A DNA stretch of 64,000 nucleotides from Vulcanimicrobiota bacterium (GCA_963833095.1 CAWHWQ010000004.1:32001-96000); one strand, 5' to 3'; counted from the stretch's first letter, positions 5,685 through 64,000 are shown. Program-made: numbers and translations. Notes: generated by a model not told the origin, from the sequence alone.

Positions 5685-5826
5685 GTTTACAATCCTTTTC
5701 CCGCTACTATACGTCTTCGACCCATGCGAGGGACTATATTAGCCGTGGTCCGGCGGCGCGTCCCGGGGCCGCCCAAAAGCGGCTGAAGGCCTGGAGCACA
5801 GGATGTGCGTCCGACCCGAACCATCT

Positions 5827-7803
5827 CTATACCGTCTTGACCGCCGCAGCCTCCGCGTAAGCCCCCAAAACACCCTGGAGAGAGCGGAGCGGGTCGCACA
5901 GTTGGGTGGTCCGTTCGGCGACCTGGTAGCCTACCGCGGGAGCTCGCATCCAAGCCTGGCGCAGCACGGTCGTCGCACTCTCGAGCGATGCGGGGTCGGC
6001 CCCTCCGGCCAGCTCAGGCCAGAGTTCGCTGAGGGCGAGTGCCGTGGAGAGGACCGGCATGACCCCGTGGCTTGCAGCTCGGACGATGCGTGCGGCCCCG
6101 TGTCCTGCCCACCCAAGGTCAGCATAGACGCGCGCGCCGCCATAGAGCGCTTCGAGCTGTCCGGCAGAGAGCGATTCATCCGGGAGCCAGATCACGCCGG
6201 GTCCGGCCGCTTCGAGAAGGCTCTGGTAATACTCGGCATTCTCGACGGTTCCCACGAGGACGCACGCAGCACCGATCGAGGCCGCAGCGCGCATCGCGAT
6301 CCACTGATTTGCTCGGGGTTCGACCGCCGCATGGATAAGGACGTATTCATCCGTGCCGCACAGGGCCCCGATAGGCTCGGGAGCCATTGGGGGCGCGGGA
6401 ACGCAGGGTACCAAGCGGGATGGACCGGCAAAGCCGAAGCGCGAGCGCACTTCCGCTTCCTCGGCCCGGGTTGCGAAAATCGCCGCTCGGCACTGCGCGA
6501 ACATCCTTCGCAAGAGCGCATCATCGTAAGCGGGCTTCCCTCGTGCCGAATCCGCATCGGTCACGATCAGACGAGCGGCCAGTCCGCGCTCGATCGACTG
6601 CTGCGTCGCCTCGTCGCGGATGCCCGAGAGCATCGTGCGAATTGCCGACGTTCCCCAAAGCGACTCGTTGGCAAAGTCGTCGAACAACGGCGTCGCCACA
6701 ATGGGAATGTCGAGACGTTTCGCTTCGCCGAGCATGTATTCGAACTGCTGCACGTGACGATGTCCGAAGAAATGGACCAAGTCGCATCCTTCCGCGCGCG
6801 CGGCCGACGCAACGGTCAATCGCGCATCGAATCCCTGGGCTTGCAACGCTTCGGCGAGAGCGCGCGCTTGGTCAACGTCGGCCTCGGGCGCAATGAGTCC
6901 GTCATCACGAATCACAATAGCGATACGACCTGCGGAGCCGCCGATAACCGGTGCGGCGCTCAGCCGGTTCGCACGCAAAATCGGGTCGCGGGCGCGAACG
7001 AAGAAGCGCCGCGCCGGCGCTGCATCGGCAACGTCGAACGAACATGCGAGCAACGGAAAGACGGGCCGCGCGAGCGTAACCTCAGTGTCGCCCTCCATCG
7101 GTGCTTCAAGAGCGATCGATACCGTCGAGCTACTCGACCCAGCCGCAGAAATGTCGACGTCAAAGCTCGCGCGCGGGATCTCACCGTAGATGCCGATCCC
7201 ATACCACGATCGCGCGAGTTCGTTACGCGCCGCCGAGCCAAGATCCGCGTGCACGGTGTTTGCGACGCGCGCCAGCAACGAGGCCCCAAAGGATCCGTCG
7301 TCCGATGAAATGCCGACGCGCCTCCCCGTAGCGAACCGCTGCGCGTACACGTAGGGCGCAACATCGGTCAACACCTCATCCACCGGGGCGGCGCAAAGGA
7401 AACGCGCCGCTCGAGCCGACTCGAAGATTGCGCGCGCCTGCGCATCGTCAGTAAAGAACCCGATGACCTCCTCTTCGAGTGATCCGAGCAGCGTATGCGC
7501 GAGCAGCCACGGCTCGAGCAGCGCCTCTAAGGCCGCCACAGCCAGGGCTTCGCACGGAAGCCACAACGGCCAGATGAACGGGCTTGCCTCACGAACGAAG
7601 ACCATCGGCGGATCGATTTGCACAAACGGAAGCAGCGCGATTTCGCCGTCACGCGAAAAAACGAGATCGATCCAGCCCTCGCCCCAAGGATAGAACGACG
7701 GCTGCAATCGGGCGGCGACCAAGTATGGCGCGCCCACGACCCGGGCAAAACGGCCCGGCTCGATAAATGGCGCGAAGCGCGAGAGCAGCGCGTGACGCCT
7801 CAC
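5827..7803 (-). CDS. glycosyltransferase (GT-B/GT4)-like protein with degenerate methyltransferase-like region
   Basis: VEPRANQ...VLVG and LYGGARVY...W motifs of GT4-like proteins; located in flagellin glycosylation cluster. Confidence 0.55.
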   Translation of the reverse strand: MRRHALLSRFAPFIEPGRFARVVGAPYLVAARLQPSFYPWGEGWIDLVFSRDGEIALLPFVQIDPPMVFVREASPFIWPLWLPCEALAVAALEALLEPWLLAHTLLGSLEEEVIGFFTDDAQARAIFESARAARFLCAAPVDEVLTDVAPYVYAQRFATGRRVGISSDDGSFGASLLARVANTVHADLGSAARNELARSWYGIGIYGEIPRASFDVDISAAGSSSSTVSIALEAPMEGDTEVTLARPVFPLLACSFDVADAAPARRFFVRARDPILRANRLSAAPVIGGSAGRIAIVIRDDGLIAPEADVDQARALAEALQAQGFDARLTVASAARAEGCDLVHFFGHRHVQQFEYMLGEAKRLDIPIVATPLFDDFANESLWGTSAIRTMLSGIRDEATQQSIERGLAARLIVTDADSARGKPAYDDALLRRMFAQCRAAIFATRAEEAEVRSRFGFAGPSRLVPCVPAPPMAPEPIGALCGTDEYVLIHAAVEPRANQWIAMRAAASIGAACVLVGTVENAEYYQSLLEAAGPGVIWLPDESLSAGQLEALYGGARVYADLGWAGHGAARIVRAASHGVMPVLSTALALSELWPELAGGADPASLESATTVLRQAWMRAPAVGYQVAERTTQLCDPLRSLQGVLGAYAEAAAVKTV

Positions 7804-12349: not shown

Positions 12350-13612
12350 TTATCGGAACAGCGTGAGGACCGACTGCGCGTTTGCGTTCGACTGCGCCAG
12401 AACCGACGTGCCGACTTGAACGAGCAGTTGTAGTTTCGTGAACTGCGTCGTTGCTTGACCCACGTTGAGGTCGGCGATGTTCGATTGCGAGGCTTGCAGG
12501 TTGACCGCTGCGGTATCGTCGTTCTGCTGGTCGATGCCGAGGCGAACGACAACGGCGCCGAGGTCAGCTTGCTGCGTGTTGAGCGTCTGCAGCGCAATGT
12601 CGAGCTGGCCGATCGCGTCTTCCGCCGCGAGCGACGGATTCGACGAAGAGCTAACCGCGAGATTGACGTTCGATAGGCGCAGCGTATTGGTGTTCGTCGC
12701 TGCGATACCGAGCTGAATCACGTCGCCTTCATCAGCGCCCGACTGGAAGTTGAACGCCGGAGCAGTCGCAAAGTTCGACGGCTGGACGTACTGCGAGATC
12801 TTGACGTATGCGGTTTGACCGATATCGCCAAGCGTCGGGGTGCTGAAGTGCAATGTCACGCCGGTGTTGATTGTCGCCAGCGTGTACGACGTTGCCGCGC
12901 CGAGCGACAAGAACGTCGAGAACGAAGCCGAGGTCGAGCTGTTGAAGGTCGTGATTTCCAGCTCGGGGGTCGCGGCCGTCGGGTTCGCGGTGTTGGCGAT
13001 GACTTGGATTTCAATCGTCTCGTCGCCCGTATTGGTCGACGTGAAGAAGTTGCCCGCCGCGATGCCGATGCTGGCAACGAGGAAGCCGGTCGACGTACCG
13101 ATCGCTTGCGCACCGCTCGAAAGGAGCGCCGCGTTTGCAGTGATCGTGTAGTACGCTTCCGCGCCCGCTTGGTCGCCCTGGTGGCTTCCATTGAGCAGCG
13201 CTTGACCGTTGAAGTTGGTGTTTTGCGCGATGCGGTTGACTTCGAGCAAAAGCTGCGAAACTTCGGTTTGCAGATTCGCGCGATCGCTCGAGCTGTTGAC
13301 ATCTGATGCCGCCTCAACCGCGAGAACGCGGATGCGCTGCAGAATGTCAGTTTGCTGGGTCAACGCACCCAGCGCGACCTGCGCAGCGTTATTGGCGTTC
13401 TGCACGTTTTGCGACGCTTGATTGAACGCTTCATACTGCGAGGTAAGGTTGGTTGAGATCGCGTTACCAGAGGGGTCATCCGCAGCGGTGTTGATCCGCA
13501 GACCGGACGACAGTTGGGTAACGACGTTTTGAAGTTGCTTTTGGTTGTTGTCGAGGTTCAGCTGAACTGAATTCGACAGCAGATTCGTGGCAATGCTCAG
13601 GCCTGTAGCCAT
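12350..13612 (-). CDS. fliC: flagellin
   Basis: LSSGLRINTAADDPSG, T.FNG..LL, FQ.GA, S.IADL, SVLAQ.N. Confidence 0.97.
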   Translation of the reverse strand: MATGLSIATNLLSNSVQLNLDNNQKQLQNVVTQLSSGLRINTAADDPSGNAISTNLTSQYEAFNQASQNVQNANNAAQVALGALTQQTDILQRIRVLAVEAASDVNSSSDRANLQTEVSQLLLEVNRIAQNTNFNGQALLNGSHQGDQAGAEAYYTITANAALLSSGAQAIGTSTGFLVASIGIAAGNFFTSTNTGDETIEIQVIANTANPTAATPELEITTFNSSTSASFSTFLSLGAATSYTLATINTGVTLHFSTPTLGDIGQTAYVKISQYVQPSNFATAPAFNFQSGADEGDVIQLGIAATNTNTLRLSNVNLAVSSSSNPSLAAEDAIGQLDIALQTLNTQQADLGAVVVRLGIDQQNDDTAAVNLQASQSNIADLNVGQATTQFTKLQLLVQVGTSVLAQSNANAQSVLTLFR

Positions 13613-13686
13613 TTTTCCTCCATGATGTGGTGCTCAGAGGCACCGATACGTATCCTATGGGGGAAGAGTGTCCGTTCTCCCCCTAA
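13613..13686 (-). promoter_or_regulatory. flagellin 5' UTR with CsrA-type sites
   Basis: ACGGA in the loop of a GGGGGAGA/TCTTCCCC hairpin (13660-13683); ATGGAGGA overlapping the SD (13616-13623). Confidence 0.7.
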
Positions 13687-13692
13687 AAGATG

Positions 13693-13719
13693 ATATCGGC
13701 CTGTTTTTACAGGACTTTA
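13693..13719 (-). promoter_or_regulatory. sigma-28 (FliA/SigD) promoter of flagellin
   Basis: TAAA-N15-GCCGATAT; the -35 overlaps the csrA stop codon. Confidence 0.9.
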
Positions 13720-13965
13720 GTGAGGGGGCTTGGCTCTTGGACGCAGCGTCGCACGTTCGGGTTTACCGGTCGTAGCCGGGGCCGCGCCTAAGGCCTCTTG
13801 ATTCGCCCTCCGGATCTCTTCGTAGACCTCGGAGCGGTGGACGGGAACGGCGCGGGGCGCCTCGATCCCAAGCTTCACTTGGTCGCGGTCAACCGCGACG
13901 ATCACAATGCGAACGTCGTCACCAATCATAATGGATTGATTGATCTTACGGCTCAGAACCAGCAT
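13717..13965 (-). CDS. csrA: carbon storage regulator CsrA
   Basis: MLVLSRK..QSIMIGDD...VKLGIEAPR.VPVHRSE plus C-terminal extension typical of FliW-associated CsrA. Confidence 0.97.
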   Translation of the reverse strand: MLVLSRKINQSIMIGDDVRIVIVAVDRDQVKLGIEAPRAVPVHRSEVYEEIRRANQEALGAAPATTGKPERATLRPRAKPPH

Positions 13966-14007
13966 CGAAGGCCCTCCTTGGCGATTAAAGAGGGGCTTTC
14001 GGCAGGG

Positions 14008-14484
14008 TCAGGCGCTCTTACTGCTCGCTGGCATCTTCTCTGCAGCTTTGCGCGGCAGCGGTTCTCGCGGCGAATAGCTCGAGCCGTCGAGCATGATCTG
14101 GCGTCCTTTGCGGGTCCGCAAGTTGACGATCACGGGCGCCATGAGATTGATCGTCATCTCCTCCGCGTCGGGAGTCACGACGACCACGCAGAGGGTCGCA
14201 AAATCGGTTGGCTCGCGGATCTCGAGCGAGGTGAATGCATAGGCGGGCAGCTTGGGTTCGTAACTCTCAAAGACCATCCACGGATCGACCGCCGGAAGCG
14301 CTACCGACGGATCGTCAAGGCTCTGCAGCCAGACGAAGGTCGGATGGCTGTCAAGGTTGAGCGGAAGCCATCGGTGCAGGTCTGGGAAGCCCGGCAAGCC
14401 CCACGGAAACTCCAGAACCTCGCTTGCTTCAAAGGTACAAGGTCCGAATCGGGGGAGATCGACGGTGATCTGTTCTTGTTCCAT
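14008..14484 (-). CDS. fliW: flagellar assembly factor FliW
   Basis: RFG...FP.GLPGF, WLQS, P...F..Y, TINL.APVIVN. Confidence 0.95.
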   Translation of the reverse strand: MEQEQITVDLPRFGPCTFEASEVLEFPWGLPGFPDLHRWLPLNLDSHPTFVWLQSLDDPSVALPAVDPWMVFESYEPKLPAYAFTSLEIREPTDFATLCVVVVTPDAEEMTINLMAPVIVNLRTRKGRQIMLDGSSYSPREPLPRKAAEKMPASSKSA

Positions 14485-14508
14485 TGTGGCTCCGCTATTC
14501 AAGCTGCG

Positions 14509-15828
14509 CTATCCGTTCGGGAGGTAGGTAAAGAGGTCTTCCTGCTCGAGCCGGGTCGTCGTTTGGTAGGCCGCTTGCAAGGCGGTCTGGCTCAAGCTGA
14601 ACTCGCTGGTCACCTTAGCAATATCGGTATCTTCGAGGCCCGATTGCACTTGGGTATCGCTGGTTCCGCGTGAAGATTCGATGGAGGAGAGCGAACTGAC
14701 CGTCTGAACGGTCGCTCCCACCAAACCGGCTGCGTTGAGCGTCACGGTGAGGGCATTGTCGATGTCGCCCAATTGGGTGGAGAGGTTGTTCACCACGTCA
14801 CCCGTCGACCCCAGGAGGAAGGCATTGGTAAAATTGCTCGCCAGGGTCGCCGGCGGGGCGGCGACGTTGCTCACCAGGAAATTTTGATTCCCGACGTCGT
14901 TGAGTGAGAGCCGCTGCGTTTGGTAGTCGAAGGACGCGACCACGCCGGTCGCGGTCGAGGCGCCGTTGATCGCAGCGATGACGTTCTGCATCGACTCTCC
15001 GACGGTGAACATGATGGTGGTGCCGGTCGGCGAGAGCGACGATGCGATCGAGAATGCCACGTTGCCGCCTCCGACCGAGGCTAACGGAATCGACAGCGGT
15101 GACGTCGCGGACTCGAGCTGCCCGATGGTTGTGCCGGTCGTGACCGCGTGGTAGCTGAGGTTGACCTGCGTGCTGCTTTCGTCCGTCGTCTGGCTCTGCT
15201 CGAGCGTATCGCGCAGGCGAATGAGCATGTTAAAGACGCTCGGCGAGCCGTTGGCGGCGTTCACATTGAAGGCTTGCTGCAAGGTCACGTTGGTCGGGAC
15301 TTGCTGGCCGTTGGGCAACTGCTCGGTCTGCTGAACGATATTCGACTTCGCCGTAACGCCCGACGGTGGGTTGCCCACTGCGGTAACCAGCGATGAACCC
15401 GCCGCAGCGGCCGTACCCGAGAAGATGTATTTGCCGTCGTACTGCGTGTTGGCCAAACCAATGGCTTGCTGCAGCAACTGATTGACTTGTTGCCCGATCG
15501 ACGCGCGTTGCGCGGGCGTAACCGTATCGCTTGCGCCCTCGATCGCGAGATTGCGCGAGCTCTGCAGCAAGGTCGTCAGGCTCGAAAGCGTGCTGTCGGT
15601 CGTCGAGAGCAAATTGTTCAACCCAGTTAGGTTCTGCCCTACCTGCGTCGTGACGGCCGAATCATTACGAACCGAAAGATCTTGCGCAATGATCGTCGGA
15701 GCGTCCGACGGTTCGTTGAGCGCGATTCCGGTCGAAAGTTCTTGCCCTTGCTGTTGATATTGCGATTCCAGATTCTCGATCGCGAGCGTCTGGTTGGAAT
15801 AGATCGTCGAGGTTGCGATGCGCATCAT
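14509..15828 (-). CDS. flgL: hook-filament junction protein FlgL
   Basis: MRIAT, LSTG...PSDAP, ANTQYDGKYIFSGT, LEDTDIA. Confidence 0.93.
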   Translation of the reverse strand: MMRIATSTIYSNQTLAIENLESQYQQQGQELSTGIALNEPSDAPTIIAQDLSVRNDSAVTTQVGQNLTGLNNLLSTTDSTLSSLTTLLQSSRNLAIEGASDTVTPAQRASIGQQVNQLLQQAIGLANTQYDGKYIFSGTAAAAGSSLVTAVGNPPSGVTAKSNIVQQTEQLPNGQQVPTNVTLQQAFNVNAANGSPSVFNMLIRLRDTLEQSQTTDESSTQVNLSYHAVTTGTTIGQLESATSPLSIPLASVGGGNVAFSIASSLSPTGTTIMFTVGESMQNVIAAINGASTATGVVASFDYQTQRLSLNDVGNQNFLVSNVAAPPATLASNFTNAFLLGSTGDVVNNLSTQLGDIDNALTVTLNAAGLVGATVQTVSSLSSIESSRGTSDTQVQSGLEDTDIAKVTSEFSLSQTALQAAYQTTTRLEQEDLFTYLPNG

Positions 15829-15849
15829 TGCTGGTTCTTCCGCCTCTCC

Positions 15850-18054
15850 TTAGGATCCGACGCCTAAACCGTTGACCACGGTGTCGAGCAGCTGATTCAG
15901 CGTCGAAATGGTCTTCGCGGCCGCCTGATAGGCCGTCTGGTACTTGATGAGGTCCTGTGTCTGCTCGTCGATGTTGATACCGGCGATACTCTGGCGCTGT
16001 TGGTCGATCGATGAAGCCAGATTGGTTTGCGTAGTGGTGCCGGTGTTCGCAGTCTGCGTGTCGAGCCCGACTTGCGTCACCAGTTGGCCGTAGTATTGTT
16101 GAAACGTCTGCGTCTGCGCCGAAGTGATCGTGTAATTAGCGCCATGATTTTGCTGGGGCGTGAAGGTCACCGATTCGACACCGTTGGCATTGACGCTCAC
16201 TGCAGACACCGTAACGTTCTCTTGCGGCAATCCGCCGCCGATCTGCGCGTCGATCGTCAGCTGTTGGCCGACCTGAACATCATTTACGCCCTTCGGCAGC
16301 GCAATCGTCGTTGCCACGCCCGCCGTTGCGGTCACGCCCGCGCCGCTCGTGGTCTCGAGCGCCGGAAAACCGACGGTGCTTTGAAACAGGCTGGTCAGCG
16401 AATTTGCGACGCCGTTGTCGGCTTGACCGTAAGCGTTGCTCGCATTCTGCTGCACGGCGCTGATATTGCCGGCGCCGAGCGCGCCGAGAATCGACGTGTT
16501 GGGCGTCGCGGCGTTATATTGGTTATCGGCTATCGTAAACGAAGGTGTCTCCAAAGCGCCTTGCTGCGCGCCGCGCAACGCCAGACTTTCGTTCGACGGA
16601 TCCCTCGCGAAAACGATCTCCTGCGATGCCGAGTCATAGGACGCCGTTACACCGGCTTGCAATGCGTTGAAGCTGGACACGAAGTCGCCGACGTTGTCGG
16701 CGTAAATCGTTCCGGCAAGCGGCGGCGAAGGCGGGGCCGCCGACGTATACCCGAACGTTTGCGCAACACCATCAACCGTGATCGTTAACTGAGAGCCGGC
16801 GGCGAACGCTGCCGTAGGCGCATTGGCGAGCGCACCGTTGTTGATCAACGCTTGCGATGTATCGACCGTATTATTGGCCGAGTTCATCGGAACGATGCCG
16901 GTCAGAGCATTTGTGTTTGCCTCGGTGTTTGCAAGGACGATAGGCAACTGAGTCGCGACGGTGATGCCGGCCTTGATATTGCCGGCCGAGATCGGCAGCT
17001 GAGCGTCGATCGGCTGAAACAATGCCGTGCCGGGCTGACCATTCGAATCGTAGCCCGATTGGGTGATTCGGTTGACCTCGTTCGCGAGACTCGAAGCAAA
17101 CTGATCGAGTTGCGTACCGTAGCTGCTCAGCTTGTTGTTGTAGAGATCTTGCAATGCCGCAAGCTGCCCGCTACCCAGCGCGACGCTGGGCGAACTCGGC
17201 GATTGCGGCGGATTGGTCGCGAAGTAGACGTTGAAGCTCTGCGACCCGTTGGATGAGGTGCCGACCACCGGCGCCGCAAGATGATACGCGACCGTATCGT
17301 TGACCAGCGCTTGACCGTTGACCATGACCAGCACCGAGCCGTCAGGCTGCACCGACGTTTGCGTCGAAATGTACTGCGAGAGCTGATCGATGTCGTAGTC
17401 GCGCTGATCCTCAAAGGTGTTCGGGTTGTCTCCCACCGCGGTCGAGGAACGAATCTGCCCGTTGAGCGCCGCGATTTGATCAAGCAGTCCGTTGACGGAC
17501 TGTACGATCGTCGCGCCCTGGGAGACGGTTTGGTTCTCCGCGTTGGAAACGGCGGAGGACGAGTTGCCCAACGCCTGCGCGAGCGACTGCGCGGTGGTCA
17601 GCACGCCCGACGACGCGGAGAGCGTGCTACCGGTGGGGCCAGCATTGACCAGATTCGTGATCGCCGTCTGGAAATTGTTAAAGGCCGTGCTGACGCCGGC
17701 AGTCGGATCGCCGAGCTGTGACTGGACGCTGTTGAGGATCTGCTGCTCGGTCGTATAGTAATTTTGCGAAGAACTCGCGCCGCGAAATAGCTCGTCGTAA
17801 GCCTGGATGTTCACGCGCTGAATCTGCGAAACGATCACGCCGTCGCCGGCGGTCCCCGGAACCTGCGTCGACTCAAACGGTGACCCAACCACAGGAGGAG
17901 CTTCGGTAAGCACGACCTGTTGCTGCGTTGCCCCGGGCGTGTTGACATTGGAGATGTTGTCGCCCGTCACGTTCTCGGCCACCGAGAACGATTGGAGCGA
18001 CGTCGACATCAAGTCGAGCCCGAAAAAAGTGCCTTGCGGGAAGAAACTACTCAC
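15850..18054 (-). CDS. flgK: hook-associated protein FlgK
   Basis: VTGDNISNVNTPG, DQRD..IDQLS, GINIDE...LIKYQ.AY.AAAK. Confidence 0.95.
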   Translation of the reverse strand: MSSFFPQGTFFGLDLMSTSLQSFSVAENVTGDNISNVNTPGATQQQVVLTEAPPVVGSPFESTQVPGTAGDGVIVSQIQRVNIQAYDELFRGASSSQNYYTTEQQILNSVQSQLGDPTAGVSTAFNNFQTAITNLVNAGPTGSTLSASSGVLTTAQSLAQALGNSSSAVSNAENQTVSQGATIVQSVNGLLDQIAALNGQIRSSTAVGDNPNTFEDQRDYDIDQLSQYISTQTSVQPDGSVLVMVNGQALVNDTVAYHLAAPVVGTSSNGSQSFNVYFATNPPQSPSSPSVALGSGQLAALQDLYNNKLSSYGTQLDQFASSLANEVNRITQSGYDSNGQPGTALFQPIDAQLPISAGNIKAGITVATQLPIVLANTEANTNALTGIVPMNSANNTVDTSQALINNGALANAPTAAFAAGSQLTITVDGVAQTFGYTSAAPPSPPLAGTIYADNVGDFVSSFNALQAGVTASYDSASQEIVFARDPSNESLALRGAQQGALETPSFTIADNQYNAATPNTSILGALGAGNISAVQQNASNAYGQADNGVANSLTSLFQSTVGFPALETTSGAGVTATAGVATTIALPKGVNDVQVGQQLTIDAQIGGGLPQENVTVSAVSVNANGVESVTFTPQQNHGANYTITSAQTQTFQQYYGQLVTQVGLDTQTANTGTTTQTNLASSIDQQRQSIAGINIDEQTQDLIKYQTAYQAAAKTISTLNQLLDTVVNGLGVGS

Positions 18055-61201: not shown

Positions 61202-62020
61202 CTACTTACTGAACAAAGTTCCGGCATTAATGGGCGCGCTGCGAAGCGCGCCCTGTTCAAGTCCCCACTTCTTCAGTAGTGCATCGTAGGTGCCGTCGGA
61301 AATCACTGCGTGAAGCGCGCTGACGATACGGGCGCGCAGGGCCGTGTTGCCCTTAGGCACGGCGATGCCGTAGGGCACGAGATCGAATTGGCGCCCAGCG
61401 ACCTCATATCGGTGATCGTTGGTTTTTGCAAGATAGGCAACCACGGGAAAATCGGTCACGTGCACGTCAGACTTGCCATCTTGAAACGCCGTGAACGCTT
61501 GGTCGTCGGTTGCGAACTCGATCAGCTTGATCGGCGCGAGACCGACGCTCGAGCAATGCTTCGAGGTTTCGTTCAGTTCGGTCTCTTGCGATGTGCCCCG
61601 CTGCACATCGACGCGCAATCCGCATAAGCCGCTCACGTCGAAGATGTGCTTCGGATTCCCCGCCGGCACGAGCATGCCGCTCCCCGCAAGCAGATAGTCC
61701 ACGAAATCGACTTGCGCTTCGCGCGCTCGCGTGTCCGAAATCGCCGAGATACCGACGTCGAAGGTGCCCATGCGCACCGCGTGGAGCAAACCGTCGAACG
61801 TGTAGTTGCTCATCACGACCGGCTCGCCAAGTTGTTTGGCGAGCGCCTGCGCCAGATCCACATCGAAGCCTTGCATGCGATGGCCCGGGCCATAGAACTC
61901 GAGCGGAGCATAAGAGACGTCGGAGCCGACTTTGAGCTCGCTGGAAGCTAGTGCGGTGGTGACGCTCAGACAAAACAGCGCCGCCACTATGGCGACGATC
62001 GTGCGTGAGAAACGTGTCAT
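61202..62020 (-). CDS. amino-acid ABC transporter substrate-binding protein (SBP family 3)
   Basis: signal peptide, YAPLEF, GFDVDL, T..RE..VDFV, DGTY..LL.KWG. Confidence 0.92.
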   Translation of the reverse strand: MTRFSRTIVAIVAALFCLSVTTALASSELKVGSDVSYAPLEFYGPGHRMQGFDVDLAQALAKQLGEPVVMSNYTFDGLLHAVRMGTFDVGISAISDTRAREAQVDFVDYLLAGSGMLVPAGNPKHIFDVSGLCGLRVDVQRGTSQETELNETSKHCSSVGLAPIKLIEFATDDQAFTAFQDGKSDVHVTDFPVVAYLAKTNDHRYEVAGRQFDLVPYGIAVPKGNTALRARIVSALHAVISDGTYDALLKKWGLEQGALRSAPINAGTLFSK

Positions 62021-62035
62021 GCACGGGTTATCGGC

Positions 62036-62069
62036 AAGACAAAGACCCGGCACATCTGCCGGGTCTTTT
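62036..62069 (-). terminator. intrinsic terminator of the tRNA operon (possibly bidirectional)
   Basis: aaagacccggca / tgccgggtcttt inverted repeat. Confidence 0.8.
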
Positions 62070-62075
62070 CCAGAA

Positions 62076-62151
62076 TGGTGCCAAGGGCCGGAATCGAACC
62101 GGCGACACCGCACTTTTCAGGCGCGTGCTCTACCGACTGAGCTACCTTGGC
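62076..62151 (-). tRNA. tRNA-Phe(GAA)
   Basis: GCCAAGG/CCTTGGC-ACCA; anticodon loop CTGAAAA. Confidence 0.96.
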
Positions 62152-62257
62152 ATATTGCCATCGCCACTCCGTGACGACCGCCATCCTGGCTTGGCAACAG
62201 CATCCGCTTCCTGCGGATGCATAGGGCGCTCTCGCTTGCGCGGAGCGCCCCTCGAAG
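62152..62257 (-). ncRNA. structured tRNA spacer with three GGA-loop hairpins (candidate CsrA-binding RNA)
   Basis: GCATCCGC-AGGAA-GCGGATGC; GCC-AGGAT-GGC; TCGTCAC-GGA-GTGGCGA. Confidence 0.45.
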
Positions 62258-62334
62258 TGGCGACGCTGATGGGGCTCGAACCCACGACCTCCGCCGTGAC
62301 AGGGCGGCGCTCTAACCAACTGAGCTACAGCGCC
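62258..62334 (-). tRNA. tRNA-Asp(GTC)
   Basis: GGCGCTG/CAGCGTC-GCCA; anticodon loop CTGTCAC. Confidence 0.96.
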
Positions 62335-62360
62335 ATGCCGGCGCTCCGAAGTTTAAAAAA

Positions 62361-62432
62361 TGGGCACGATAGGGCTCGAACCTATGACCCTCCGCGTGTG
62401 AAGCGGATGCTCTCCCACTGAGCTACGCGCCC
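62361..62432 (-). tRNA. tRNA-Val(CAC), CCA not encoded
   Basis: GGGCGCG/CGTGCCC-A; TCCGC-TTCACAC-GCGGA. Confidence 0.95.
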
Positions 62433-62531
62433 ATGACCGGCCCGCGACCGGCTCGCATGCATTGGACAAGCCGAGAGTTTATCCTACCCGGGGGCATGTT
62501 GTCTAGCCACCTCGGTCGAAACGGCCAGCCC

Positions 62532-62963
62532 ATGCTCGAAGGCTTTCCTCTCGTGACGCGTTTCACGATCCCGTTTTCCGACATCGACATGCTGCAGCAC
62601 GTCAACAATCTGGCGTACATTCGCTGGTGCGAAACGGTGCGCACCGAGTACTTTGCGACGGTCATGCGCTCGGATATCACCAGCGAACGCGGCATGATCC
62701 AAGCGAACATCAACTTCACCTACGAACGCCAACTCAAATTTCGCGAATCCATCGCGGTGGGCGTGCGGGTCTCGCGTCTTGGAACGAAATCACTCGATTT
62801 CAGCTATGAGATCTGGAGCGAAACGCAGGGCCATCGTGCGGCTCACGGCATCACCACCGTGGTTGCGTACGATTTCGTCAACCACCGCACGATCGAAATC
62901 CCGCAGGAGTGGCGCGAATGGATCGATGAGGCCGAGCGGGGCCCGCAACGCTCGTTCGTCTAG
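62532..62963 (+). CDS. acyl-CoA thioesterase (4HBT/YbgC family)
   Basis: F.DID.LQHVNN..Y..W.E..R. Confidence 0.9.
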   Translation: MLEGFPLVTRFTIPFSDIDMLQHVNNLAYIRWCETVRTEYFATVMRSDITSERGMIQANINFTYERQLKFRESIAVGVRVSRLGTKSLDFSYEIWSETQGHRAAHGITTVVAYDFVNHRTIEIPQEWREWIDEAERGPQRSFV

Positions 62964-63601
62964 AGCGTAAAGGCAACGATCGAGGTGGTCTTGGGATCGT
63001 TGCACCAGAAGCGTTGTCCGTCGTGCGCGAGTGAGATCGCTGCGAACGGCAGGGAAGCAACGACATCGACGCTATCTCCGTTCACCCGGCCGAGTTTTGG
63101 GCCGCCCTCTTTTCCGTACCAGAGCGACGCGTAGAGCCATCCGTCGACAAAGGTGATTCCGAGAATCTGCCCCCCAGCCGTAATCTCCCGACGAATGTTC
63201 GCGTTTGCGTCGAGTAAGAGGATGCGCCTGTTGAAGCGTTGGCTGAGCCAGAGTGACTCGCCGTCGTAAGCCAGAAATGATCCGGTGTCATCAGGACACG
63301 CGATCTTATCGCGCTCCTTGAAGCCGTGTCCGGGAATGTAACGCCTGATGAAGCGATGGTCGTCCTCGCCGCCCTCGCTCAGCACACCGCGCAGCTCTTC
63401 GCCGACGGCAACCAAGCTCACCGGCTTGCCCGGCGCGGGACGCTCCTCGAAGACAGTGAAGTGCGCGCGATCGATTCCGTAGATGCGCTGCGTCTCCCAT
63501 GAACCCATCCAGAGATGCTCGCCCGCGCACGCGAGCGCCTGAGGCGCTGGCGCCGGGGAGGGCATGCGCAGAACTTCTTCAATCGTCGTCGCTTGTTCCA
63601 T
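62960..63601 (-). CDS. hypothetical beta-propeller-like protein
   Basis: repeated LA.DG..LW-type blades. Confidence 0.6.
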   Translation of the reverse strand: MEQATTIEEVLRMPSPAPAPQALACAGEHLWMGSWETQRIYGIDRAHFTVFEERPAPGKPVSLVAVGEELRGVLSEGGEDDHRFIRRYIPGHGFKERDKIACPDDTGSFLAYDGESLWLSQRFNRRILLLDANANIRREITAGGQILGITFVDGWLYASLWYGKEGGPKLGRVNGDSVDVVASLPFAAISLAHDGQRFWCNDPKTTSIVAFTL

Positions 63602-63665
63602 GAGGCGCGCTTCGACTCGAGGTCACCGTCCCCCGCAGGTACGGTCCGCTCCCGGGAATAATCGT

Positions 63666-63694
63666 TTGACGCCGCCAGGGGCCTTTGCTATAGT
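63666..63694 (+). promoter_or_regulatory. sigma-70 promoter of tRNA-Val(GAC)
   Basis: TTGACG-N17-TATAGT with extended -10 TG. Confidence 0.85.
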
Positions 63695-63777
63695 CTTGCG
63701 AGCCCGAGGCGCATCTGCAGGATGCAGATGCTGTTTTCAAGCCACCAGGGCGGTCCCGCGAAGCGGAATGAAAATAC

Positions 63778-63852
63778 GTGCGTGTAGCTCAGTGGGAGAG
63801 CACCACCTTGACACGGTGGGGGTCGTAGGTTCAATCCCTACCACGCACACCA
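63778..63852 (+). tRNA. tRNA-Val(GAC)
   Basis: GTGCGTG/CACGCAC-ACCA; CCACC-TTGACAC-GGTGG. Confidence 0.96.
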
Positions 63853-64000
63853 TTTCATCGGTCCTTCGGACCGAACGACATCCTGTCTTGACATTCAGCG
63901 TCGCCTTCCAAGGGCGACACACCATTTCATCGGTCCTTCGGACCGAACGACATCCTGTCTTGACATTCAGCGTCGCCTTCCAAGGGCGACACACCATTTC
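63846..64000 (+). repeat. 72-bp perfect tandem repeat starting in the tRNA 3' end (2 full copies plus a partial third, runs off window)
   Basis: units at 63846-63917, 63918-63989 and 63990 onward. Confidence 0.95.

Follow-up and report, generated by a model that had tools for sequence, protein, structure and literature searches.

The hairpin before tRNA-Val(GAC) is the first stem of a larger, dispersed four-helix repeat

The window, a stretch of 64,000 nucleotides from a Vulcanimicrobiota bacterium of soil (GCA_963833095.1 CAWHWQ010000004.1:32001-96000), carries two similar hairpins close to tRNA genes. The hairpin GCATCTGC-AGGAT-GCAGATGC occupies 63711-63731 on the plus strand, in the leader of tRNA-Val(GAC), and GCATCCGC-AGGAA-GCGGATGC occupies 62200-62220 on the minus strand, in the tRNA-Asp/tRNA-Phe spacer. 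Do they form a motif that is dedicated to tRNA transcripts and selected as RNA, as an earlier note on this DNA proposed, or do they belong to something wider? The descriptive part of that note is confirmed: both hairpins are present, they differ by one C-G to T-A pair and one loop base, the plus-strand hairpin lies between a promoter-like site (63666-63694) and tRNA-Val(GAC) (63778-63852), and both are in sense orientation relative to their tRNAs. A degenerate pattern of the hairpin has two exact matches in the window versus 0.03 expected by chance, and none of 100 shuffles reaches three. The whole 2.8-Mb, 8-contig assembly yields the same two matches only, with up to two mismatches allowed.

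Overlooked by that reading is a similarity which runs for about 45 nt beyond the hairpin. It takes in three further helices and stops 3 nt short of each tRNA. The hairpin before tRNA-Val is the first stem (P1) of a larger dispersed four-helix repeat and not a tRNA-specific signal.

The four-helix unit and its copies in the window

The copies in the window and the features around them are the following.

63711..63731, plus strand: P1 hairpin of the tRNA-Val(GAC) leader copy, with an 8-bp stem and the loop AGGAT
63709..63777, plus strand: whole element in the tRNA-Val(GAC) leader; covariance model match of 54.5 bits; ends 3 nt before the tRNA +1
Helices of the Val copy, plus strand: P1 63711-63731; P2 63734-63739 with 63769-63774 (TTTTCA/TGAAAA); P3 63741-63751; P4 63756-63766
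62152..62222, minus strand: whole element in the tRNA-Asp/tRNA-Phe spacer; covariance model match of 59.7 bits; ends 3 nt before the tRNA-Phe +1
Helices of the Phe copy, minus strand: P1 62220-62200; P2 62197-62192 with 62160-62155 (TTGCCA/TGGCAA); P3 62190-62180; P4 62176-62162
63666..63694, plus strand: sigma-70-like promoter of tRNA-Val(GAC), TTGACG, 17-nt spacer, TATAGT; kept at the loci of 11 relatives
63778..63852, plus strand: tRNA-Val(GAC)
62076..62151, minus strand: tRNA-Phe(GAA)
5763..5831, plus strand: degenerate third window copy, 31.8 bits; P1, linker, 5' strand of P2 and P3 kept, P4 lost
63846..64000, continuing to about 64070 in the contig (L035 3307-3531), minus strand: reverse tandem array of a diverged element, 72 nt x 3.1; model matches of 27.4, 23.7 and 16.8 bits

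The unit measures about 66-78 nt and comprises four helices: P1, followed by P2, which encloses P3 and P4. From 5' to 3' it consists of P1 (5-8 bp, loop A-S-G-A-W), a linker that is usually UGAAG, the 6-bp P2, and the tail CGTC. P2 closes a three-way junction with P3 (GCRC-AGGAU-GYGC) and a variable P4. The commonest form away from tRNAs contains (G)TA, a P1 with the loop ACGAU or AGGAU, the linker UGAAG, the P2 pair GUUCGG/CCGAAC, an invariant A, the P3 hairpin GCRC-AGGAU-GYGC, GA, the variable P4, and the tail CGUC followed by UA. The junction base A is invariant in 60/60 copies, and the linker reads UGAAG in 39 of the 60.

In the two leader copies of the window, the P2 strand TTGCCA or TTTTCA pairs with TGGCAA or TGAAAA just 5' of the tRNA and constitutes a second covarying helix. 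Their P3 is GCC-AGGAT-GGC or GCC-ACCAG-GGC, and their P4 is CGTCAC-GGA-GTGGCG or CCGC-GAA-GCGG. The minimum-energy fold recovers the four-helix architecture for the Phe copy (-36.1 kcal/mol, z -4.7) and most of it for the Val copy (-27.0 kcal/mol, z -2.9), and both strands fold about equally well (z -2.6 to -4.9). Both are diverged members of the family, with 59.7 (Phe) and 54.5 (Val) bits versus 80-95 for canonical copies.

The degenerate third copy at 5763..5831 lies next to a 658-aa opposite-strand ORF, which stops 5 nt after it. The array at 63846..64000 has its tail end facing the 3' end of tRNA-Val(GAC), and each of its units starts with the last 7 nt of the tRNA (CACACCA) and the native 3' flank. 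The tRNA is bracketed in this way by inverted element copies, one in the leader and the array on the 3' side. The array is absent at all 10 relatives' loci inspected, and it recalls the repeats 3' of tyrT in E. coli.

Another structure in the same operon lies between tRNA-Asp and the element, at 62223-62257 on the minus strand. This conserved hairpin, GAGGGGCGCTC...GAGCGCCCCTC, is kept in the Asp-Phe spacers of nearly all species, including the 'empty' ones of 41-47 nt, and may serve the tRNA operon in processing or as a spacer.

Distribution, placement and turnover of the family

The genome of the window is referred to as G000, and its relatives from the same genus as G001, G002 and so on. 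A search with the P3 motif found the four-helix unit at many non-tRNA loci, and nhmmer independently returned 43 matches at E<0.01 in G000. A covariance model, R1, was built from 35 copies, which match it by construction. It gives 46 matches at E<=0.1 in G000, or 39 loci after two tandem arrays are collapsed, one with six units before tRNA-Gln(UUG) and one with three units at C5:214197-214410. The former, at C3:91894-92336, is made of 73-nt units, and the start of each (TGGGGTCGCC...) resembles the 5' end of the tRNA itself; the latter consists of 69-nt units and lies between two opposite-strand ORFs.

All 17 other genomes of the genus match the model, with 1-28 matches each among the candidates scored, and several of these genomes are incomplete. 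Outside the genus, none of 23 genomes (7 from other genera of the family, 5 from the order, 11 from the class) has a match among the candidates scored. An exact scan for the core pattern, with one genome per species and 185,579 species, found 40 stretches. Records titled Candidatus Eremiobacteraeota, Eremiobacteria or Aquilonibacter account for 33 of them, and the other seven come from metagenome bins with other submitter labels. By the model searches, the family is confined to one genus. A comparison with Rfam 15 passes only tRNAs in the window at 61800-64000, and it assigns no family to 20 canonical copies, which have four chance-level hits with E values of 0.51-4.9. A literature search listed, among its best matches, no paper on repeats in the Aquilonibacter/Eremiobacter lineage. 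The element is regarded here as an undescribed REP-like structured repeat.

Placement in G000 was scored with crude gene calls, based on ORFs and a codon-usage score. Eight of the 39 loci are at tRNA 5' ends, all in sense and ending 1-5 nt before the tRNA. Inspection by eye of the 41 tRNA genes called by ARAGORN likewise finds an upstream element at eight, namely Phe, Val(GAC), Leu(CAG), Ser(CGA), Arg(CCG), Lys(UUU), Ser(GGA) and Gln(UUG). The motif is therefore not tRNA-specific, since 31 of the 39 loci are away from tRNA 5' ends, and this part of the earlier claim falls. At 13 of these 31 loci, the stop codon of an opposite-strand ORF lies 3-5 nt beyond P2. Of these flush stops, ten are TAG, two TAA and one TGA, compared with 865 TGA, 717 TAG and 702 TAA genome-wide by the same calls. 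At the P1 end, about five loci have a same-strand ORF that stops there at TAG or TAA. The rest of the G000 loci lie elsewhere between genes or at doubtful sites.

The 30 best copies of G002, G006 and G015 behave similarly. An opposite-strand ORF stops right after P2 at 18 of them (TAG 16, TAA 2), in 17 of the 18 cases at 3-4 nt, and a same-strand ORF stops at the P1 end in six. Five of these six are flush on both sides, and the element there spans the gap between convergent genes from stop to stop. One copy in G002 is antisense and flush with the 3' end of tRNA-Ser(GCT). Across the four genomes, TA-containing stops are near-exclusive at flush junctions, with about 28 TAG or TAA versus one TGA. 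Placement is polar: the P2/tail end, at a distance of 1-5 nt, faces either the start of a same-strand tRNA or the end of an opposite-strand gene, which is a TAG/TAA stop or a tRNA 3' end. The earlier note had expected a mere DNA palindrome to occur in random orientation at many non-tRNA loci. The many non-tRNA loci were found, and this expectation is largely borne out, except that the orientation is polar and not random. The strands of the matches in G002 and G006 also hint at a replication-strand bias, which is confounded with gene orientation.

Within the genus, the element has been gained, tandemly duplicated, truncated and lost at individual sites. In the Asp-Phe spacer, it is full in four of 16 species, six have a 41-47 nt spacer without the element, and the rest are truncated, replaced or otherwise expanded. 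In the Val(GAC) leader, it is full in four of 11 species, reduced to P1 in G009 and to P4 and the 3' strand of P2 in G007, and the leader is short in the others. A copy is detected in the Ser(CGA) leader of 7/15 species and in the Arg(CCG) leader of 2-3/16. Species thus differ in what they carry at one and the same tRNA, and the leader copies are dispensable. The site C1:98117 is filled in G000 only, out of 14 genomes with both flanks located, and C1:461346 is filled in G000, G009 and G015 only, out of 17 genomes. Both have clean empty sites in the genus, and at both the native stop codon of the neighbour is retained and abuts the element. Among 26 copies of relatives whose flanks align to G000, G000 shares about eight and has a shorter site for about 14; in most of the latter, an internal deletion has spared half of P1 and the tail. 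Since many 'empty' sites of G000 are such remnants and not clean empty sites, a large part of the family may be old. In public metagenomes, contigs from related organisms bridge both window copies, in keeping with empty or short alleles.

Two further observations concern the tRNA loci. The Asp-Phe spacer of G002, G010 and G006 (L036, L038, L053) is 450-550 nt longer. It contains a terminator-like hairpin 3' of tRNA-Asp, what looks like an ORF on the reverse strand and, ahead of the element or of what is left of it, a new AT-rich stretch that resembles a promoter; tRNA-Phe has thus been uncoupled from the Val-Asp operon there. The 3' strand of P2 was considered as the native target of the element. 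The Val leaders of G001 and G007 suggested it, and the empty sites at tRNA-Phe do not bear it out.

Covariation and the competing explanations

Four genomes supplied 77 copies (74 distinct) for assessing the structure, all of them aligned to the model. Such an alignment is fitted to the model and favours structure, but the margin is large: in the 74 distinct copies, 95.8% of the cells hold standard pairs versus 77.2% in shuffles. Two-sided changes occur at 19/22 pairs, and 247 cells are compensatory versus 61 in shuffles, with none of 500 shuffles reaching 247. In a control with the partners slid by 1-3 columns, pairing is 28-46%. This pattern strongly supports the predicted four-helix structure. 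By type, 1496 pairs are Watson-Crick, 32 G-U, 24 A-C, which is G-U on the other strand, and 43 other. Since G-U is about as frequent as A-C, there is no signal of RNA selection on one strand.

Orthologous copies show the same tendency site by site. Among sister species, P1 of the Val(GAC) leader copy reads CTGC/GCAG, CAGC/GCTG or CAAC/GTTG. Eight pairs of orthologous copies are 77-98% identical, similar to their mostly coding flanks, and contain 12 two-sided compensatory changes, two one-sided changes and 17 broken pairs. Compensation in these copies appears to exceed neutral decay; gene conversion between copies could mimic it. Together with the invariant junction A, it speaks for selection site by site, something that purely selfish DNA would not lead one to expect. 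The earlier claim of selection at the RNA level is accordingly retained in one respect and lost in another. The helices are kept by compensatory change, both family-wide and between the leader copies of sister species, but the lack of a sense-strand wobble bias (32 G-U versus 24 A-C) does not single out the sense RNA.

The best explanation, to which we give a probability of about 0.6 for all its parts jointly, is a REP-like structured repeat that is a passenger in tRNA leaders and has no tRNA-related function. The element would spread, or would have spread, as DNA into the few A/T-containing gene-boundary positions of a GC-rich, tightly packed genome. It would persist where an insertion does no harm: behind stop codons, and in the leaders and trailers of tRNAs. 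The two window copies would be co-transcribed with their tRNA, from the tRNA promoter or operon, and RNase P would cut them off with the rest of the leader. Behind the C-G to T-A change would stand a need, common to the whole family, for helices that form on both strands; their likeliest use is as hairpins where transcripts end or as a recognition structure. The symmetric Watson-Crick constraint would fit an element that lies between convergent genes and is read from either side. Such an element may work as a hairpin or insulator at 3' ends, or its structure may be recognised in DNA. REPs are known as 3'-end hairpins or insulators, and an effect on translation is reported for REPs near stop codons. 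Several findings count against this explanation: no mobilising enzyme came to light, terminal inverted repeats are missing, a TA duplication is clean at one site only, many sites hold old deletion remnants, and there are the signs of selection at each site. Nor does survival at harmless sites alone account for the strict sense orientation at 8/8 tRNA genes.

With regard to processing, RNase P RNA (RF00010) was not found in G000, an 80.7%-complete assembly, or in G001, and it is present in four of five relatives searched (G002, G006, G010 and G015). Its absence from G000 is most likely an assembly gap, and in view of its presence in the four relatives a protein-only RNase P was rejected as the reason for the odd leaders. 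A search of public sequencing runs returned DNA contigs and one RNA run with 6% of the query words.

The movement of the element was approached through candidate enzymes and the element ends. A RAYT or IS200-type Y1 transposase (PF01797) has no match in 17/18 genomes of the genus, including two single-contig genomes with 27-28 copies. The one match, of 23.6 bits, is in G013, and the control search is positive in 6/14 reference genomes. The IS630-type DDE_3 domain (PF13358) occurs only in G015 (two copies), one of 18 genomes. In the five genomes searched for them, DDE_Tnp_1, IS110 and TnpB turn up sporadically or as single copies, away from element copies. An IS200/605 element or a REP with a RAYT was rejected because 17/18 genomes lack the Y1 transposase, and an IS630 MITE because DDE_3 is restricted to G015. 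Separately, a single-copy TnpB-like ORF (Cas12f1-like_TNB domain, 331-438 aa) is present at C5:1235-1435 of G000, with counterparts in G002, G006 and G015 and no Y1 TnpA.

The ends share only TAG/CTA and 2-3 further bases, and no terminal inverted repeats are seen by eye on the consensus. At the tRNA-Phe site, TAT flanks the element on both sides versus a single TAT or TAC at empty sites; this is the one site with a clean TA duplication. The pattern at C1:98117 is compatible with TA duplication, and none is present at the clean site L075. TA is found at the 5' end in 22/60 copies and at the 3' end in 32/60. The TA-containing stops and the terminal C (C + TA = CTA, which is TAG on the other strand) fit insertion at TA, and TA targeting is a lead rather than a result.

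These data bear on two other accounts of the family. One holds it to be purely selfish DNA: a transposable element, non-autonomous and without any RNA-level or host function, with hairpins that some enzyme, perhaps since lost, would recognise in single-stranded or cruciform form. Copy numbers of 1-46 among the species of one genus, lineage-specific filled sites, tandem arrays and frequent internal-deletion remnants would suit such an element, and so would the polar flush junctions by TA-containing stops and the symmetric Watson-Crick pairing. However, no cognate transposase correlates with the copies, terminal inverted repeats are lacking, and the orthologous compensation and the conserved junction and loop bases suggest constraint at each site, subject to gene conversion as a possible mimic; a purely selfish origin is rather unlikely. 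A tRNA-specific RNA leader module, in which the folded leader aids or regulates maturation or transcription of the tRNA, is clearly less probable. As part of this account, the fold could present the 5' end to RNase P, or it could act as an attenuator, as P1 is followed by UGUUUUC in the Val copy. It draws on the sense orientation of all eight upstream copies adjacent to tRNAs and their ends 1-5 nt before +1, on the retention of P1 through compensatory changes in orthologous leader copies, and on a subtype at Phe, Val(GAC) and Leu(CAG), with the linker CUG/CAG and the P3 GCC-AGGAU-GGC, which is absent from non-tRNA loci. Against it, 33/41 tRNA genes have no element, the same tRNA is found with or without it depending on the species (Phe 4/16, Val(GAC) 4/11, Ser(CGA) 7/15, Arg(CCG) 2-3/16, full or detected copies), 31/39 loci lie away from tRNA 5' ends, and wobble pairs show no bias towards the sense strand. 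In a check for intrinsic terminators or attenuators, only P1 of the Val(GAC) leader with its TGTTTTC was flagged as terminator-like; most copies have no U-tract after P1, the linker of the family being UGAAG (39/60 copies).

It is highly improbable that the copies are CsrA-binding modules, with C-AGGAU-G loops that would titrate, or else recruit, the window's own FliW-type CsrA and with leaders and arrays as predicted decoys. The P3 loop with its closing pair is CAGGAUG, the P1 loops of the window copies are CAGGAUG and CAGGAAG, and these match the CsrB repeat. CsrA is encoded in 18/18 genomes of the genus, two loops about 28 nt apart could suit the dimer, and arrays of three and six units exist. 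On the contrary, GGA is present in the P1 loop of only 27/74 copies and in the P3 loop of 54/74, 13/74 have it in neither, and the commonest P1 loop is ACGAU. Moreover, most non-tRNA copies are antisense to the adjacent gene, so that the mRNA would carry UCC and not GGA, and no promoter or terminator marks an sRNA gene. The csrA gene of the window belongs to a minus-strand cluster at 12350-18054, flgK - flgL-like - fliW - csrA - flagellin, which is the arrangement of a FliW/CsrA partner switch. The flagellin leader at 13613-13716 contains AUAGGAUA and a GGAGGA Shine-Dalgarno sequence.

A ribozyme or riboswitch was rejected, as the copies have no Rfam hit, no particular gene recurs downstream of them, and their neighbours mostly run antisense to them or converge on them. 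Inspection by eye saw no hammerhead, twister or HDV cores. A tRNA-like fold was likewise rejected, as ARAGORN calls no extra tRNA or tmRNA at the copies.

It is also conceivable, yet on balance unlikely, that the family is one more member of an unrecognised class. Its small structured elements would settle at gene boundaries in a fixed polarity, without a known transposase, and would be kept foldable on both strands at each site. If true, it would imply a new mechanism of insertion, host- or RNA-mediated, and/or a general double-stranded 'gene-end' signal, with the leader copies as the same device in sense.

Under the preferred reading of a REP-like repeat, a dedicated tRNA-leader motif is replaced by a documented repeat family, and a false call of a 'novel cis-regulatory RNA' is avoided. 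The family is informative for its four-helix structure, its polar placement at 1-5 nt, its strong preference for TAG/TAA over TGA, and the lack of a RAYT or IS630-type partner even in two closed genomes. It poses the testable question of how repeats without a RAYT move and why they stay folded. The annotation of Eremiobacterota genomes is also affected, in that repeats on stop codons and tRNA ends break assemblies.

Comparison with known repeats and RNAs

REP/BIME/REPIN: The REP, BIME and REPIN sequences of Proteobacteria are mobilised by RAYT, a Y1 HUH transposase. Like them, the element is short, GC-rich, hairpin-forming and extragenic, has tens of copies, and keeps its stems by compensatory change. 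It also lies at gene ends near stop codons, many copies have a 5' (G)TAG by the first hairpin, and the copy number varies between close relatives. In contrast, a REP is one imperfect palindrome, whereas the element has four helices, a three-way junction and invariant junction bases. The REP head is a conserved 5' GT[AG]G, and that of the element is xTA in 22/60 copies. Unlike the inverted doublets of REPs and REPINs, the arrays of the element are direct, and no two copies in G000 are inverted within 200 nt except across tRNA-Val(GAC). RAYT is missing from 17/18 genomes, and the placement, unlike that of REPs and REPINs, is strictly polar and flush with gene boundaries.

TA-targeting MITEs: Bacterial MITEs that target TA, such as Correia and RUP (IS630/Tc1-like), are about 70-150 nt long, fold into hairpins, and insert at gene boundaries with TA junctions. 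The element resembles them in size, hairpins, boundary insertion with TA, co-transcription with neighbours, and presence or absence between relatives. It differs from them in that it has no terminal inverted repeats, shows a clear TA duplication at only one site, and has DDE_3 in only 1/18 genomes.

CsrB/RsmZ RNAs: The CsrB repeat CAGGA(U/A/C)G lies in hairpin loops and is close to the SELEX consensus (PMC7652899). The element shares with CsrB and RsmZ this motif in the loops of short hairpins, the repeated units, and a CsrA encoded in the genome. On the contrary, GGA is lost in many copies of the element, there is no sRNA-gene organisation, and the copies are dispersed at gene ends in both orientations. 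The organism has the FliW-type CsrA system, for which there is no established sponge RNA (PMC7652899).

Bacillaceae-1 RNA: This RNA (RF01690) forms two hairpins, and UCCU in their loops gives them a likeness to P1 and P3 read on the reverse strand. However, this best Rfam match is 19.1 bits with an E value of 1.6, compared with a gathering score of 35, and is on the opposite strand with a different architecture; the element is not a member of this family.

Among the known systems, the element is most like a REP or a small MITE, yet it departs from both in the features that define them.
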